A stretch of DNA of 64,000 nt from a virus. The translations under genes and the position numbers were made by a program. The DNA lies in the IMG/VR virus record IMGVR_UViG_3300020202_000065; one strand, 5' to 3'. Every line of letters begins with the position of its first letter. Within the stretch, counting starts at the first letter, position 1. The notes below the pieces were generated by a model. The model worked only from the letters and a program-made list of their open reading frames with translations, was not told the origin of the DNA and searched no databases. This document shows positions 1 through 33,902 of this stretch, piece after piece.

Positions 1-90
1 CATGATCCGAGCCAACGCCGCCTCCGTCACCAACGTGCCCGGATTCATTTCCCCCAACGCCTGTATGATTCCCTTCGACGATGCTTGCAT
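1..90 (-). CDS. N-terminal fragment of a possible HTH/excisionase-like protein running off the left edge (MQASSKGIIQALGEMNPGTLVTEAALARIM...)
   Basis: Manual translation, open from ATG at 90 to the edge; T-E-x-x-L-A-R resembles the first HTH helix; truncated. Confidence 0.35.
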   Translation of the reverse strand, partial: MQASSKGIIQALGEMNPGTLVTEAALARIM

Positions 91-306
91 AGCGGCGCAC
101 TCGCTCTCTAGGTGCCGAATTCATGATTGTTGACAAGTGGATATATTTTCACTTTGGCAAACCGCATGCAAAAACTCGCAACATTAAGAAAGTAAATTCA
201 AATCCCGCAGCGCTCCGAAACTTACAGTAACTCGGAAGTGAAAAATAACCACCGATCAGCAACGACTTAACATAGGTTGCACGCAGTGCAAAATGAGGGG
301 GTCCGC

Positions 307-404
307 AAAAACGACTATAGGTATATTTTTCTCTCTTTTTCTCTAAAATCCACTTTTCCTCTTTAGAAACACATTTCATTAATTACCCCTATATAGTCGT
401 TTTT
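307..404. repeat. 13-bp perfect inverted repeat (AAAAACGACTATA / TATAGTCGTTTTT) around a 72-bp AT-rich spacer
   Basis: Arms at 307-319 and 392-404 read directly. Confidence 0.85.
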
Positions 405-890
405 CACGACCACCCCGCCTCGCGATGCAGCATTTTAAACCAAACCCTCGTGATACTGTGACATGATTTGGCACACGGAATTACCAGAACTTTCCTACTA
501 CTCCGTTACTTAGCCTCTCATCACTTTTGTTGGTCATTAATCAAAATGGTCAAAAACAAAAAATTTTGTGTCGTGTGAGTTAAGGGCCTCCCGCCTGGCC
601 AGCACTGGCGCTGTGATCGACTGGGAAACTATACCCCCTATGTCATTGTATAGCATAGCCTTACAGACTTCGTGCAGATACCATACGGTATCTACACAAT
701 CACGGTCCAGAGCAGAGGCTCAATTGTCACGATGTGATTTTGCCCTGCAGGTTATTCATTGTGCATAAAAGGATTTCCTTGTCTGAAATACCTAACAAAA
801 TCCCGAACTAGCATCGAAAGTAGGGTCATTCCCTGAGAAATTCATTTAGTTTATCGTTAGGTAATTAGGTAAATACTTGTAAAGCTTAAA

Positions 891-937
891 TTCCAGTGAG
901 TGTAGAGTTTCCAGTCCTGTATCTGTGGAATTCCAGT
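891..937 (+). repeat. Three TTCCAGT direct repeats next to an AT-rich tract (iteron-like)
   Basis: Copies at 891, 909 and 931. Confidence 0.6.
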
Positions 938-958
938 GCCTTGACTTTCCTGTGTATC

Positions 959-1053
959 TAGCGTGATATCACGTTATTTATTACAGATTAAAGCTTTGTG
1001 ATATCACGTGACTTGCGTAGTGATATGGCATCAAAGTAGCGTGATATCACGTT
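959..1053. promoter_or_regulatory. Operator-like array of GTGATATCAC palindromes
   Basis: TAGCGTGATATCACGTT is exact at 959-975 and 1037-1053; GTGATATCAC at 998-1007; half-site GTGATAT at 1020; TTGACA at 1062. Confidence 0.7.
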
Positions 1054-1128
1054 GCTTGCGCTTGACACTCTGTCCATTGTGGACAAGTCAAGGTGCAAGG
1101 GGAGCAAGGCCTAAAGGGAGTGCTTACC

Positions 1129-1206
1129 ATGAGGGGATTCAAGCTTGTGTCTCTGGCAGTTCTGACAGGATATGCGCTTTCCTTCATGCTGGCTTGCATT
1201 CTCTAG
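1129..1206 (+). CDS. 25-aa hydrophobic single-TM peptide MRGFKLVSLAVLTGYALSFMLACIL (type I toxin-like)
   Basis: SD-like AAAGGGAGT 7 nt upstream; below the ORF-track size cutoff. Confidence 0.5.
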   Translation: MRGFKLVSLAVLTGYALSFMLACIL

Positions 1207-1245
1207 GGTGTTACGTGGCGCTATGCCACAGAGGGAGTAGGGATC

Positions 1246-1755
1246 ATGGGTAACACGGTTGAAGTTTCTGAGAAGGTCACGGCAAAGCACATCGGTGCTG
1301 CTCTTTCGGCGCTTGTGATCAATACGCGCGGGAAACTGGCCTGCATTGGCGGAATGATCCTCGCCTACGGCAAGGCACACGGTCATGAGAGCAAGGCGGA
1401 CACTCTGGACGCTCTCGAAACTGAATTGAAGCTTCAGAAAATGACTCTGGACAAGTCCCTGTGCAATCGCGCGCTGAAGGCGCATGCGGACCGGAAAACG
1501 GCCAACGAAAAAGGCGTCTATGCGGAATGGAGCAAGGCCAGCACAGATGCAGAGGCACAGGCCATTTTGGACAAGGCCTGCAACAAAGAGCGCAAAGAGA
1601 AGACGCCAAAGAGCGACCTTTCGAAGGTGCTCGCGCTGATTGCGAAGCTTGACGCTGCAGGACTGTCAAGCGCTTTGACGGCGATTGAGGCGCAGTTGAG
1701 CGCTATCGAAGCGGCAAAGGCCAGCACGAGCAAGGCGGGCACTGCTGCAGCGTAG
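1246..1755 (+). CDS. Hypothetical protein, Ala/Lys-rich helical, 169 aa
   Basis: SD AGGGAG; coherent ORF followed by a long hairpin. Confidence 0.8.
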   Translation: MGNTVEVSEKVTAKHIGAALSALVINTRGKLACIGGMILAYGKAHGHESKADTLDALETELKLQKMTLDKSLCNRALKAHADRKTANEKGVYAEWSKASTDAEAQAILDKACNKERKEKTPKSDLSKVLALIAKLDAAGLSSALTAIEAQLSAIEAAKASTSKAGTAAA

Positions 1756-1760
1756 CGTCT

Positions 1761-1821
1761 ACTCCCTTCGCTCCCTTGACCCCTGCGCAGTACTGGCAGG
1801 GGTTAAGGCATTGAAGGGAGT
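1761..1821 (+). other. Long stem-loop after the 169-aa gene
   Basis: ACTCCCTTC/GAAGGGAGT and CCTTGACCCCTGC/GCAGGGGTTAAGG pair. Confidence 0.75.
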
Positions 1822-1838
1822 CCGCATTCGTTCTCTTC

Positions 1839-1850
1839 GCTCTTTGACAA
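1839..1850 (+). promoter_or_regulatory. boxA-like antitermination element GCTCTTTGACAA
   Basis: Resembles the rrn boxA consensus (GCTCTTTAACA); the TTGACA has no -10 at the proper spacing. Confidence 0.55.
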
Positions 1851-2109
1851 TCCTGTGTCGTATGAGTCGGCAGCAGACTGGACGTGCAAGCGGTAATACC
1901 GTTGCGCGTGCAGTGCTTCCAGTTCTAGCGCTTCGCTCTTTCCCTGTGGCTCTAGGTTCTCGGGACTAGATCACAGGAAAAAACCGCTTTCGGTTTTGGC
2001 GGGAAAGGATGTGCGGTCTAGCGCTACGGGAAGCATACGCGCGCAACGGTTAAACCCGTCAGTGATCCACACGGTACACGGGCACCTTAACTGCCACAGG
2101 ATGAAAGGG

Positions 2110-2122
2110 AGTCTTTGACAAT
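2110..2122 (+). promoter_or_regulatory. Second boxA-like element AGTCTTTGACAAT
   Basis: Shares TCTTTGACAAT with the 1839 copy; sits between two closed RNA domains. Confidence 0.5.
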
Positions 2123-2693
2123 CTAGAGACCGATTGAAGGCCAGCACAGGACTTGTCCTGTGTTGCTGCCGATGTGCGATAAATCGCCTGTGTACGCTTG
2201 CGCTATGCAAGCTATCGACACTCGCGACGATACGCGCGGTATCGGTCCGAATAGTGCACGCCGTGAAGTTTTGCGGTTAGATACTCTGCCATGTCGCAAC
2301 GGATGATTTTGCGGCCGCGCGGACCAGGTTAGAAACTCTGCCTGGCCTGAACGGTGCAAAAGAATCGCGTGGGCCTGGCATCGAGTGTTTTGCTGTGAAC
2401 AGATCGTGTGCGCCATCCCCTGCCGTTGGATGTGGAGCTCTCAGTGCGCTGTGCGTTATGCCGGCGAATGAGCGAACGGAATGTGCGTGCCGGCAATTTT
2501 CGTGAGGAACGATTAGGCCGGGCAGATGATGATGGAACAGGTGAGGGGCATTGCTGCCTCAGTCTACGGGACTTTAACCTGCCATCGGGGTATCTATCGC
2601 CCCTTGGGAACGAGACGGAGTGCTGAACTCTGTCCAGTGAGCCAGCCAGGTCGGCAGAGCTCTGCCCGAGAACGAGATGGACAGATCCAGATT

Positions 2694-2736
2694 GCGGCGG
2701 GGGTCACGCCTAGTTAGCGTGGCCCTCGCCGTTTTT
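2694..2736 (+). terminator. Intrinsic terminator ending the large RNA
   Basis: GC-rich stem around loop CTAGTTA followed by a T-run. Confidence 0.7.
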
Positions 2737-2917
2737 CACAGAACAGACTCACCTTCCCGTTAGCAACTCTGTCCGGACAAATCATTTTCACGCCGCATTA
2801 TGCGTTTTTTTGGCCGGATTATGCATGAACAGGCCTGAATTATTCGCTTTCGGCCGCGCCTTATTACTCCACTCGAATTGAACGATCGAGCCCTCGTGTG
2901 TGAGGACTCTGCCGCTC

Positions 2918-2945
2918 GCCCCGGTGATTGTCACCGGGGCTTTTT
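2918..2945 (+). terminator. Intrinsic terminator GCCCCGGTGA-TTG-TCACCGGGGC-TTTTT
   Basis: 10-bp stem plus T5; near copy at 4504. Confidence 0.75.
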
Positions 2946-2963
2946 CGTGTCTGGAGATTACCT

Positions 2964-3119
2964 ATGAAGATTTGGCGCGTCTGTGATGAACACGGCAACA
3001 CCGTGGTTGACGAGGTGATCGGCGAGCTGGTCTTTTGTTCCATGACCGTTGCCGCCGCGACCGCGTTTCAACTCACCAAGCAGAGCCGCAGGCCCCACCA
3101 CGTCGAATTCAATTTCTAA
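2964..3119 (+). CDS. Small hypothetical protein (MKIWRVCDEHG...)
   Basis: SD GGAG; ATG at 2964. Confidence 0.7.
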   Translation: MKIWRVCDEHGNTVVDEVIGELVFCSMTVAAATAFQLTKQSRRPHHVEFNF

Positions 3120-3197
3120 CCGTGAACGCAGAGCACGCCGGCGGCGCCGGCGCAATGCGGCCGCCCCGGAGGGCGCCAGTTGCAAGCCTGGGAGAGC
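3111..3197 (+). ncRNA. Possible degenerate third tRNA-like element
   Basis: D-arm-like CGTG-AACGCAGAG-CACG, T-arm-like CCAG-TTGCAAGC-CTGG, only ~4 bp of acceptor pairing. Confidence 0.3.
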
Positions 3198-3203
3198 ACA
3201 GCC

Positions 3204-3359
3204 ATGGAATCACCGGAACAGTACGAAGCGAAGGTCGACGCCTACTACAGCGGGTACGTGCACGAGGAACTCGCGCGCCCCGCGATCGTGGAAGCGAATT
3301 ACGAACAGCAGTACCACAACGAGTACCTCTACGCCGCGCCCACCGCGGCCGCCGCCTGA
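3204..3359 (+). CDS. 51-aa acidic Tyr-rich hypothetical protein (MESPEQYEAKVDAYY...)
   Basis: Manual translation; SD GGAGAG; not in the ORF track. Confidence 0.7.
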   Translation: MESPEQYEAKVDAYYSGYVHEELARPAIVEANYEQQYHNEYLYAAPTAAAA

Positions 3360-3428
3360 ACGTGGTTTCGTGTCCGCGCCTCTTCGCTGGGGCGCGGGAA
3401 TGAACCCATGTCAAAGGAGAACAGGACT

Positions 3429-3647
3429 ATGGATTACTGCTACATCGTCACCTCGAATGACGGCCAGGTGCTCGGCGTCTTCGACAAGATGAACAAAGCC
3501 GTCGACAGCGTCTCGCTCAGCTACAGCGCGACCGGACACGTCAATTTCGATGCCTATGGACCGAACGAAGTCCGGGCCCAGGCGCCGAACGGCGATAAGC
3601 TGCGCATCACCGGCATGCCGGTCAAGACCACCGTTGATCATCTGTAA
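3429..3647 (+). CDS. Hypothetical protein
   Basis: SD AAGGAG/AGGA; phage-like codon use. Confidence 0.75.
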   Translation: MDYCYIVTSNDGQVLGVFDKMNKAVDSVSLSYSATGHVNFDAYGPNEVRAQAPNGDKLRITGMPVKTTVDHL

Positions 3648-3681
3648 TTGAACAAACCCCCGAACAGCAAAGGAGAATGCC

Positions 3682-3930
3682 ATGAAAGTCACCGCGCGCA
3701 CGCGTGGCGGCGGCGCCGTCAAATTCAGCAGCAAGCACGGCGTCTGGGCCAGCTACAAAGTAGCAGGTGTCGCCGATCTTCCAACGCCTGAGATTTTTTA
3801 CGCCGGCGCCAAGCTGCCCGACGGCAGACGCATTCAGTTTTTCCTGAACCGCGAGACCAACCTCGTAGTGGTCGATGTGATCGATCGCAGCGGCCGCAGC
3901 GGTACGGAGATCGTCCGCCGGAAAGTCTGA
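3682..3930 (+). CDS. Hypothetical protein, 82 aa
   Basis: SD AAAGGAG. Confidence 0.8.
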   Translation: MKVTARTRGGGAVKFSSKHGVWASYKVAGVADLPTPEIFYAGAKLPDGRRIQFFLNRETNLVVVDVIDRSGRSGTEIVRRKV

Positions 3931-4045
3931 ACCGCTTTACACCCATGAACGTTGTCAAGTGAACGGCTCATTTCGGGCCGTTTTGTCAAGTAAACCAGCT
4001 AAAAGAAAGAAGGTTCCGCGTCACACCGTTCGAAAAGTGAACCGC

Positions 4046-4087
4046 AGGTGGACGACTTTTTTGACCCGCCCGAAAAGTCTTCCACCT
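4046..4087 (+). other. Intergenic long imperfect hairpin
   Basis: AGGTGGA/TCCACCT and GACTTTT/AAAAGTC pair. Confidence 0.65.
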
Positions 4088-4141
4088 CTCCTATGAAAAC
4101 AGGGTGGACTAATTTTGAAAAAGGAAAGGAGGTGTAGTCCA

Positions 4142-4432
4142 GTGGCCACGCAAAAGCCTGTCTGCCGTGACGTTCAGGCCTATCTCAAATTTCATCTCGG
4201 CAAGAACTGGTCCGCGCCGCTCACCGGAACAGATTGGCGCGCCTTTGCCGCGTTCTGTCACCTGGTGGATCTCTGGTGTACGACCGAGTCACCGCACGCC
4301 GAAGAAGCCATGCGGCAAACGCTGAAGGTCTGCCAGAGTTCCGTGCTGCCGATTTTCTATCATGCCGCCGCCGGCATCACGATGGAAAGCACGGCTGAAC
4401 GGCTCTGGCCGCGCATCAAACCGAAAGAGTAA
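4142..4432 (+). CDS. Hypothetical protein
   Basis: GTG start behind AGGAGG. Confidence 0.75.
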   Translation: MATQKPVCRDVQAYLKFHLGKNWSAPLTGTDWRAFAAFCHLVDLWCTTESPHAEEAMRQTLKVCQSSVLPIFYHAAAGITMESTAERLWPRIKPKE

Positions 4433-4546: not shown

Positions 4547-4774
4547 ATGGCTACTGTCACGCAACACATTGTCAGCATTCGTGCTGAACGTCTCTACCGT
4601 GAAGTCATCGCTCCCGGCGGTGTCGATTTCTCGAAATTTGAAATCGATGAGATCCTCGAGGTTCGGGCGCATGCCCAGCTCGTCGCCACCAACGGCGAAT
4701 ACCATGAGCGCCGCAAGGCCCTCGCCACGCTGATCGAGATCGAAGACGTCCTGTTCCTGCGCCTGCAGTCCTAA
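4547..4774 (+). CDS. Hypothetical protein
   Basis: SD GGAGG; ATG at 4547. Confidence 0.8.
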   Translation: MATVTQHIVSIRAERLYREVIAPGGVDFSKFEIDEILEVRAHAQLVATNGEYHERRKALATLIEIEDVLFLRLQS

Positions 4775-4816
4775 CCCCCGCTGATTCCGCCAGAAAGCTT
4801 AAAGTTTAAACGATAC
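4773..4816 (+). promoter_or_regulatory. Phage-specific promoter-like motif, copy 1
   Basis: AACCCCCGCTG-N14-CTTAAAGT-N5-CGATAC. Confidence 0.7.
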
Positions 4817-4823
4817 GCAACCA

Positions 4824-4992: not shown

Positions 4993-5187
4993 ATGAACCT
5001 CAACGCAGCCGCCGCCCAGCTCATCCAGGAACTCGATTCAATCCCGGCAGCAACGTGGGGCGGCGTCTTTGTCCGCTACGACACGCCGCGGGACACCATT
5101 GCGATCGATCTGCGCAGTGTCGGTCTGGTCGAAATCTTTGAACTCTACACCAACGGCATGCGGATCCGTTGGGCCAACCCCCGCTGA
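4993..5187 (+). CDS. Hypothetical protein, 64 aa
   Basis: SD AAGGAG. Confidence 0.8.
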   Translation: MNLNAAAAQLIQELDSIPAATWGGVFVRYDTPRDTIAIDLRSVGLVEIFELYTNGMRIRWANPR

Positions 5188-5219
5188 TCCCGCCAGATTT
5201 CCTCAAGTTCCAACGATAC
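5176..5219 (+). promoter_or_regulatory. Phage-specific promoter-like motif, copy 2
   Basis: AACCCCCGCTG-N14-CCTCAAGT-N5-CGATAC. Confidence 0.7.
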
Positions 5220-5230
5220 GAAGTTTTTAG

Positions 5231-33585: not shown

Positions 33586-33628
33586 AACCCCCGCTGAATA
33601 ATTAATTTCCTCAAGTAATCCTCCGATT
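33586..33628 (+). promoter_or_regulatory. Phage-specific promoter-like motif, copy 5
   Basis: AACCCCCGCTG-N12-CCTCAAGT-N7-CGATT. Confidence 0.6.
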
Positions 33629-33659
33629 GAATTCACGTACTCTGTCGGAGGATTTTCAT

Positions 33660-33902
33660 GTGAGCACGTCCAGCCGTGTGCTGACATTCGTCAAAGCGTT
33701 TCATGTCGAATGCGATAAGCATCTGCGTGGAACCAAGGACAGGCCGCTCAGCGAACGCGTGAAACTCGCGCGCGCCGCGTTCCCTTCCTGGGCCAAGCGC
33801 AACACCTACCGCCGCCGTCTGTGGAACCACTACATCAAAGAGATGCTCGGGCTCAAGCGCCTTCGTGACGCATCGCCGCGAAAGAAGGCGATGGCGATAT
33901 GA
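33660..33902 (+). CDS. Hypothetical basic protein
   Basis: GTG start behind GGAGG. Confidence 0.7.
   Translation: MSTSSRVLTFVKAFHVECDKHLRGTKDRPLSERVKLARAAFPSWAKRNTYRRRLWNHYIKEMLGLKRLRDASPRKKAMAI

Follow-up and report, generated by a model that had tools for sequence, protein, structure and literature searches.

In lambda-type phages a nut site combines boxA with a boxB hairpin, nutL being located upstream of the N gene and nutR downstream of it, and the boxB hairpins at the two sites carry a loop that is matched within one phage and differs between phages. The put RNAs of phage HK022 are about 70 nt long, consist of two stems and do not need a boxA. In rRNA operons and at the lambda nut sites the boxA element (published consensus GYTCTTTAANA, PMC5725501) loads Nus factors, as described in PMC3177189, PMC2800207 and PMC10250234. 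Here we compare with these systems a stretch of 1208 nt without a called gene (positions 1756-2963, + strand) in the viral record IMGVR_UViG_3300020202_000065 of IMG/VR, of which 64,000 nt were analysed (this whole piece of DNA is called the window below). The stretch is a noncoding, folded RNA region of the + strand that matches no Rfam family. We regard it as an evenly balanced proposition that it serves as a cis-acting, rrn/nut-like antitermination leader or spacer of the rightward early operon and also yields a folded RNA. The new elements are an RNA domain family and a terminator-linked motif, and both are found inside a familiar regulatory logic.

On its 5' side the stretch is bordered by ORF169 (1246-1755, + strand), the first early gene of some size, and on its 3' side by a series of small ORFs that starts at 2964 on the same strand. 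A long hairpin (H0) is followed by two boxA-like elements, and directly behind each of these is a domain with a long-range closing helix of its own (domains A and B). Further on are domain C, a stretch designated D and two intrinsic terminators (T1 and T2). Relatives were collected by an exhaustive HMMER search with ORF169, which gave 22 homolog clusters. All related contigs of sufficient length show a comparable gene-free gap behind the gene of the ORF169 family, with the exception of L130, the most distant relative examined, i.e. ORF169 is the conserved partner of the gap. The gap measures 1237 nt in L006, 1204 nt in L007, 1215 nt in L123, 1243 nt in L128, 880 nt in L124, 1105 nt in the P0004 contig and 634 nt in the P0015 contig; the L004 and L005 contigs end inside the gap, and the P0010 contig ends at the ORF169-family gene. 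The primary sequence of the gaps is not alignable beyond short motifs, and the distant relatives keep only the architecture and these motifs, namely boxA-like elements, a 16-nt motif and terminator hairpins.

The sequence-only reading of this DNA had described positions 1850-2736 as free of ORFs, and this description can be extended to the entire gap. Gene callers predicted zero genes in 1756-2963 on three identical public contigs, the longest ORFs of the region (97, 72 and 63 aa) had no Pfam match above the cut-off, and a tblastx comparison of eight homologous gaps gave no coding signal, the only identity being at the nucleotide level in one hairpin. The homologous gaps are likewise without a called gene except for one 36-aa ORF on the opposite strand. 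It may be asked whether the gap is a decayed or unrecognised coding sequence, or whether its structure arose by chance in an intergenic scar, as the short ORFs of 63-97 aa and the shuffle-like folding of 2360-2693 might suggest. This explanation is hardly credible: in addition to the lack of called genes, no ORF is conserved in any frame among the eight gaps, compensatory changes are present, and the folding scores of the gaps (about -7 to -12) differ from those of coding controls, which are near 0.

These folding scores are z-scores that compare the fold energy with that of shuffled sequence, using 16 shuffles for each whole gap and 100 shuffles for the per-domain values. The whole gap of the window folds at z -7.0 on the + strand and -4.8 on the - strand, whereas five coding segments of the window of equal length range from -1.1 to +1.8; the region thus folds better than shuffled sequence. 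For 1850-2736 alone the two values are -4.0 (+ strand) and -3.8 (- strand). In the six full-length gaps the + strand values range from -7.0 to -11.7 and the - strand is always weaker (-4.8 to -8.3). Within the window the + strand values are -7.1 for H0, -4.4 for domain A, -4.1 for domain B and -7.8 for T1, while domain C and segment 2526-2693 reach -1.8 each, segment 2360-2525 is at +1.2 and 2360-2693 as a whole at -0.6. In other words, better-than-chance folding is confined to about the 5' 400 nt and the terminator, and the middle third is excluded. The earlier statement that almost every stretch pairs is therefore correct for the 5' ~400 nt and T1 but not for 2360-2693, and the idea of a single ornate RNA of ~890 nt has to be abandoned. 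The individual helices that had been named are all present, with TGCAC located one base off, at 2255, and all but one of them also appear in the minimum-free-energy folds; for CTGTCCA/TGGACAG (2629-2685) an alternative pairing is preferred.

As judged from the covariation in three phages, domain A (1851-2101, + strand) is a conserved structured RNA. Pairing of 1851-1857 with 2095-2101 closes the domain, whose core is a long hairpin (1884-2053). When the predicted fold of window positions 1876-2062 was turned into a covariance model, the syntenic stretches of L005 and L004 were recovered with E values of 1.6e-6 and 3.7e-3, respectively. When the window-derived structure was imposed on L004 and L005 alone, 92.5% was paired and 16 pairs were compensatory, while pairing was 32-40% if the 3' partners were slid by 1-3 columns. 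Conversely, a model built from L004 and L005 only, i.e. without the window sequence, recovered window positions 1884-2053 with 87.7 bits (E 1.6e-19) and gave no reverse-strand match. In the three-way alignment 95.3% of the cells are paired and 30 of the 54 pairs are compensatory, with changes on both sides; the slid controls were paired at 32-46%, with at most 6 pairs changed on both sides. We note that the alignments were fitted to the model, which favours pairing; nonetheless the distance from the controls is large. Close relatives do not extend over domains C and D, and these compensatory counts cover domain A.

The apical 10-nt loop of domain A, GGUUyNyGGrAC, is kept in the window, L004 and L005. 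The closing helix is likewise preserved in L004 and L005, in sequences that are completely different, and in all three phages it starts right after the first boxA-like element and ends 2-8 nt before the second. The three-way junction that had been seen in this domain is present in the window, but the second arm that creates it is a hairpin inserted in the window only, which L004 and L005 do not have. The domain A models do not reach L006, L007, L123, L124 or L128.

The pair tables of domain A contain 18 G-U cells, A-C accounts for 2 of the 7 unpaired cells, and pairing on the opposite strand is about 84%. As the G-U cells would be A-C on the other strand, the structure belongs to the RNA of the + strand. 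This bears on a possible function at the DNA level, i.e. as a replication origin, an iteron array or a protein-binding region in which the copies of the 16-nt motif are binding sites and the hairpins are inverted repeats. Such an element could explain why five copies of the motif are found in the same orientation within 650 bp, and both strands fold better than chance. However, the + strand folds better in all six full-length gaps, the helices of domain A are kept through G-U intermediates that are A-C mismatches on the other strand, the spacing of the motif is irregular, no AT-rich unwinding region is apparent from the composition, and boxA elements and terminators are RNA-level signals that are here oriented with the operon. 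We consider a DNA-level element quite improbable; the strand asymmetry, the covariation that includes G-U pairs and the lack of a conserved frame make both this possibility and hidden coding unlikely.

The two boxA-like elements, GCTCTTTGACAA at 1839-1850 and AGTCTTTGACAA at 2110-2121, are both on the + strand, and the second is located 8 nt behind the closing helix of domain A and 6 nt before that of domain B. Within the 64 kb the string TCTTTGACAATC is confined to two positions, 1841 and 2112. GCTCTTTGACA fits the boxA consensus at 10 of 11 positions, and the second copy at 9 of 11. Either GATCTTTGAGAAC or GGTCCTTGAGAAC is present in the rrn leader of each of six relatives of G001, a genome that hosts a related prophage (L129); we take this type of leader to be actinobacterial on the basis of mycobacterial rrn leaders. 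Most homologous gaps have one to three boxA-like elements, the first of which lies 60-110 nt past the stop codon and behind a hairpin. The position and sense strand of the elements would suit a placement upstream of a folded RNA.

The likeness to rRNA operon antitermination (PMC10250234, PMC4807359 and PMC3177189) consists of a near-identical boxA that is repeated before each folded domain. In addition, a long-range helix closes each domain beside the boxA, and the RNA is long and untranslated. The order of these elements corresponds to that in rRNA operons, where boxA is present in leader and spacer and helices form between leader and trailer. In contrast to rRNA operons, the domains here are 120-250 nt long and are not rRNA, the closing helices have 7-12 bp and are not long RNase III stems, no boxC was recognised in the region, and the region ends in intrinsic terminators before protein genes.

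The hairpin H0 (1757-1825, core 1781-1803, + strand) stands directly after the ORF169 stop codon and has no U-tract behind it. Its core is 91-95% identical in L004 and L123, and a hairpin or terminator is found at the equivalent place in all homologs. At the other end, T1 (2694-2736, + strand) is a G+C-rich hairpin of 16 bp followed by TTTTT, with a folding energy (dG) of about -30 kcal/mol, in agreement with the terminator that had been assigned to this position; L123 has an equivalent hairpin. T2 (2918-2948, + strand) has a stem of 10 bp, 8 of them GC, and a tail of TTTTT. Both have the composition expected of intrinsic terminators, i.e. a G+C-rich hairpin and then a U-tract on the transcribed strand. 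From the end of T2 to the start codon of the next ORF (2964) there are 16 nt, which leaves no room for a promoter, so the downstream early genes would depend on read-through. A region rich in palindromes, among them four copies of GTGATATCAC, is located at 959-1053 and was assigned as a promoter region from the reading of the sequence. With a putative operator-controlled promoter upstream, two boxA elements and two terminators, the second of which leaves no space for another promoter, the locus has the layout of a regulatory leader.

Domain B (2128-2247, + strand) is formed by the closing helix GACCGAU/AUCGGUC, two inner arms and a pentaloop hairpin that is described below. The only syntenic full-length alignment of its covariance model is a weak one in L005, obtained with filters off at 9.9 bits and E 0.09, and the model has no significant homolog. 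The comparison with homologs that had been proposed as a check of the RNA thus succeeded for domain A but not for domain B. Domain C (2255-2358, + strand) holds the first two copies of the 16-nt motif; its z-score is +0.2 on the - strand, and in a 150-nt window it folds at -5.1 on the + strand and -1.1 on the - strand. Stretch D (2360-2693, + strand), which folds at chance level, holds the third copy.

A hairpin with the pentaloop GCUAU is found twice on the + strand. The first copy (1215-1229) precedes the start codon of ORF169 and its Shine-Dalgarno site by about 17 nt, and the second (2197-2211) is inside domain B. The 9-mer GCGCTATGC is present only twice in the 64 kb, at 1218 and 2200. 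A G(C/U)UAU hairpin occurs twice each in the window, L005 and L004, always once ~17-25 nt upstream of the ORF169 start and once in domain B. Over the six instances from the three phages 96.7% of the cells are paired and 4 of the 5 pairs are compensatory. At both of these places L007 instead shows another matched pair, GCTACTTTTAGC. No pentaloop hairpin was found close behind the first boxA.

This arrangement is reminiscent of the lambda nut/N system in several respects: in a temperate phage the region heads the early operon, it combines boxA with terminators that could gate delayed-early genes, and a pentaloop hairpin is found at two sites, one of them just upstream of the first early gene, with the loop matched per phage. 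On the other hand, the present locus has over 1 kb of additional structured RNA, and the 16-nt motif has no counterpart in lambda. Taken together, the region comes closest to an rrn leader and spacer layout joined to a gated early operon of the lambda type, but it belongs to neither class.

The 16-nt motif, GTTAGATACTCTGYC, occurs in five copies (m1 to m5) on the + strand, all in the same orientation. Copies m1 and m2, with the sequence GTTAGAWACTCTGCC, are at 2276-2291 and 2328-2343, m3 has its core at 2627-2634, and m4, GTTAGCAACTCTGTCC, is at 2759-2774, followed by a weak hairpin and a run of seven T (2795-2815). Copy m5 (2899-2913, core ACTCTGCC at 2906-2913) is 4 nt upstream of T2. The 16-mer gives 4 matches, as compared to 0.12 expected by chance, and 6 of the 7 matches of the core ACTCTGYC in the window fall within 1067-2913, all on the + strand. 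CTCTGTC is the sole 7-mer common to all eight gaps. The 52-nt distance between the starts of m1 and m2 recurs in L007, and the 16-mer of m4 is identical at the equivalent place in L123.

It is conspicuous that the motif is found next to terminators. It is located at the apex of the strongest (terminator) hairpin in L124 and L007, it stands directly 5' of a terminator in L006 and, as m5, in the window, and it is located 22-30 nt behind T1 in the window and L123. The small stem of the motif itself keeps its pairing in L007 and L124 through an A-U to G-C change. Two other explanations of the motif were dropped. A role as an antisense RNA target was rejected because no complementary copy exists on either strand of the 64 kb, and a role as a promoter is not tenable as a general reading because m5 is directly upstream of T2, where there is no space for a transcript, and the copies share no -35 element.

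A further copy of the motif is found at 33639, within a hairpin loop, and this hairpin sequesters the Shine-Dalgarno site of the next ORF. In this hairpin (33620-33662, + strand) AATCCTCCG pairs with CGGAGGATT, the core TACTCTGTC is in the loop, and the 3' arm is the Shine-Dalgarno site of an ORF that starts at about 33659. It may be a translational switch that uses the motif of the leader.

ORF169 is the first candidate for a factor that recognises these elements because it is the sole gene that travels with the gap and one copy of the pentaloop hairpin is in its own leader. Its AlphaFold2 model is all-alpha (pLDDT 84) and found no match in PDB or AFDB. Neither ORF169 nor the other early ORFs had a Pfam or PHROG match to the N or Q families. 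Among the 401 genomes of the family to which G001 belongs, the ORF169 family is found in G001 alone. In three phages the gene of the ORF169 family is immediately preceded by a conserved hydrophobic peptide ORF of 25-26 aa with a basic N-terminus, at 1129-1206 in the window (25 aa, + strand), at 75-152 in L004 and at 1415-1495 in L005.

If the region is an antitermination leader, its transcription would most likely begin in the putative promoter region with the GTGATATCAC palindromes (~930-1060) and would also cover the small peptide ORF and ORF169. By analogy to the known systems, boxA could load the host proteins NusB/NusE, with NusA and NusG, onto the RNA polymerase. This would shield 1.2 kb of untranslated RNA from Rho and aid its folding. 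The 16-nt motif and the pentaloop hairpin would be the recognition sites of a trans-acting factor, with the ORF169 protein as the first candidate, and this factor may set the balance between termination and read-through, as N does at the lambda nut sites. Transcripts that stop at T1 or T2 would leave a folded RNA tail.

A number of points weigh against the leader reading. We infer the promoter, the RNA ends and the read-through alike, and the region is contained in just two sequencing runs, both of them soil DNA metagenomes and neither of them RNA; the phage itself is known from soil metagenomes only. Covariation is limited to domain A and one small hairpin and comes from three sequences. The second pentaloop hairpin is ~75 nt past the second boxA, which is far looser than the 8 nt of a lambda nut site, and ORF169, an all-alpha protein of 169 aa, has no similarity to N and showed no likeness to known antiterminators or RNA-binding proteins in the searches. 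The rrn leaders used in the boxA comparison are from relatives of the host of another prophage and may not be those of the present host. The boxA elements include TTGACA, which is the -35 consensus of sigma-70; the elements were nevertheless rejected as sigma-70 promoters because no -10 hexamer is at a usable spacing. The boxA of L124 and L128 comes only after an intrinsic terminator, which a boxA-based mechanism alone could not bypass. Finally, a leader has no obvious need of conserved domains of 250 nt, so a function in trans may be part of the picture.

It is possible, if doubtful, that the region contains one or several stand-alone ncRNA genes (domain A, domain B or the whole up to T1) whose products act in trans as a decoy, sponge or scaffold, for instance towards RNase III, Nus factors, a defence system or the RNA polymerase, and that boxA serves only for the making and folding of this RNA, as in rRNA operons. 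This is, in a modular version, what the sequence-only reading had proposed. Domain A fits well into this picture, as a closed unit of ~250 nt with covariation and a conserved apical loop of 10 nt, and so do the gap length of 1.2 kb, which is kept in five phages despite sequence turnover, and the strong terminator at the end of the structured part. Moreover, boxA together with a closing helix is an architecture used for stable RNAs according to PMC10250234, and a twister ribozyme match nearby (see below) can be taken as a sign of transcript processing. But domains A and B are not found beyond ~57% identity of ORF169, a third of the region folds at chance level, a separate promoter is not recognisable in the sequence, the sequencing runs are of soil DNA only, and closing helices of 7-12 bp are too short for classical release by RNase III. 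The single large ncRNA proposed by the sequence-only reading is not upheld for related reasons, as the models of domains A and B miss the distant relatives and the layout between promoter and ORFs is that of a regulatory leader. We note that the leader and the trans-acting RNA may both be real.

We think it unlikely, though worth stating, that the phage carries a miniature imitation of an rRNA operon, in which boxA recruits the host machinery, domains A and B act in trans in early infection (e.g. as a sink of Nus factors, or as a decoy of a defence system or nuclease of the host) and the 16-nt motif is the RNA site of a new family, that of ORF169, which controls termination.

Among structured RNAs of phages the GOLLD and ROOL families are comparable in being phage-borne, noncoding, structured and several hundred nt long. 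They differ from the present region in that no model matches it, no ornate core is kept across the relatives, part of it is unstructured and it is embedded in an operon between regulatory signals. In agreement with the sequence-only reading, which could not match the region to GOLLD, ROOL, tmRNA, RNase P or introns, cmscan gave no covariance-model match to any of these in the region at E values up to 10. In general, scanning against Rfam (the window at gathering thresholds, positions 1-4200 at E up to 10) gave no match in 1756-2963 except for chance microRNA and sRNA rows, and the eight homolog loci had no match to GOLLD, ROOL or other large Rfam RNAs either. A 6S-like mimic for RNA polymerase was rejected: the consensus of domain A has only small internal loops and no large central bubble, and the 6S model had no match at E up to 10.

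The putL/putR RNAs of HK022 and other cis-acting antiterminator RNAs such as EAR offer a further comparison, as the present region is likewise folded RNA of an early leader and might act in cis on the RNA polymerase so that downstream terminators are read through. Similarly, the dicBF-type arrays of early-leader RNAs in lambdoid prophages, which include DicF, are gene-free, modular, folded RNAs behind an early promoter. DicF differs in that there is no similarity at the level of sequence or model, and the phage lineage considered here is unrelated and comes from soil.

If the leader reading is correct, temperate phages outside the enterobacterial lambdoids gate their early genes with an antitermination signal borrowed from rRNA operons, combined with folded RNA domains of their own and a new RNA motif tied to terminators. 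It would add to the uses of boxA outside rRNA and lambda, and it would provide a candidate for a new pair of RNA motif and protein in termination control. Domain A, with its solid covariation, would be a new structured RNA domain and an uncatalogued RNA family for the databases.

The search for further relatives was extended to other collections. INPHARED phage genomes, searched by blastn in a distant mode, contained no relative, nor did IMG/VR when searched with the ORF169 protein, its alignment and the H0 pattern, and the protein alignment found no confirmed relative in JGI metagenomes and GTDB genomes. A loose DNA pattern of two motifs gave 115 loci in IMG/VR, which were discarded as chance matches with zero ORF169 relatives among them. 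The strict m1-m2 pattern had 0 matches in GTDB genomes and one in IMG/VR, which belonged to an unrelated AT-rich phage and was also rejected. The H0 pattern found six loci in metagenome contigs that are unrelated and eukaryote-like and were set aside. In these six (L138-L143, from JGI metagenomes) the exact 22-nt core of H0 is found in unrelated contigs rich in A-tracts and is flanked by sequences resembling 3' and 5' splice sites; this is probably a coincidence or a eukaryotic mini-exon.

The phage is a novel temperate, siphovirus-like prophage, and the window is its left part. A tape-measure protein, a helicase and a DNA methyltransferase are encoded in the window, and most of the proteins have no family. 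All genes from ~1.1 kb to 36 kb are on the + strand. Two ENA contigs and one JGI contig carry identical copies of the region, with an integrase gene just upstream. In L128 a partial tmRNA-like match (854-956) adjoins the integrase of the related prophage, which suggests integration at the ssrA gene. A tRNA scan of the window found none.

A second gene-poor stretch of ~1 kb is located upstream, at 134-1128. It is AT-richer, includes the four GTGATATCAC palindromes as well as a large inverted repeat at about 301-420 and folds at z -3.8. Downstream of the leader, between the first two 51-aa ORFs, there is a match to the type-P5 twister ribozyme (3127-3191, + strand; 38.6 bits as compared to a gathering score of 37.6). 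The Rfam model found no twister in the eight homolog loci.

Two kinds of repeated elements were seen in the intergenic parts of the early region. A 45-nt element that starts with AACCCCCGCTGA and is distinct from the 16-nt motif is present at 4773-4817, at 5176-5220 and at about 33588. G+C-rich hairpins that end in GGGAATG recur between early genes, at 3372-3410 in the window and at 1512-1550 and 2644-2686 in L006, and the 150-nt segment from 3301 to 3450 in the window folds at z -4.0.

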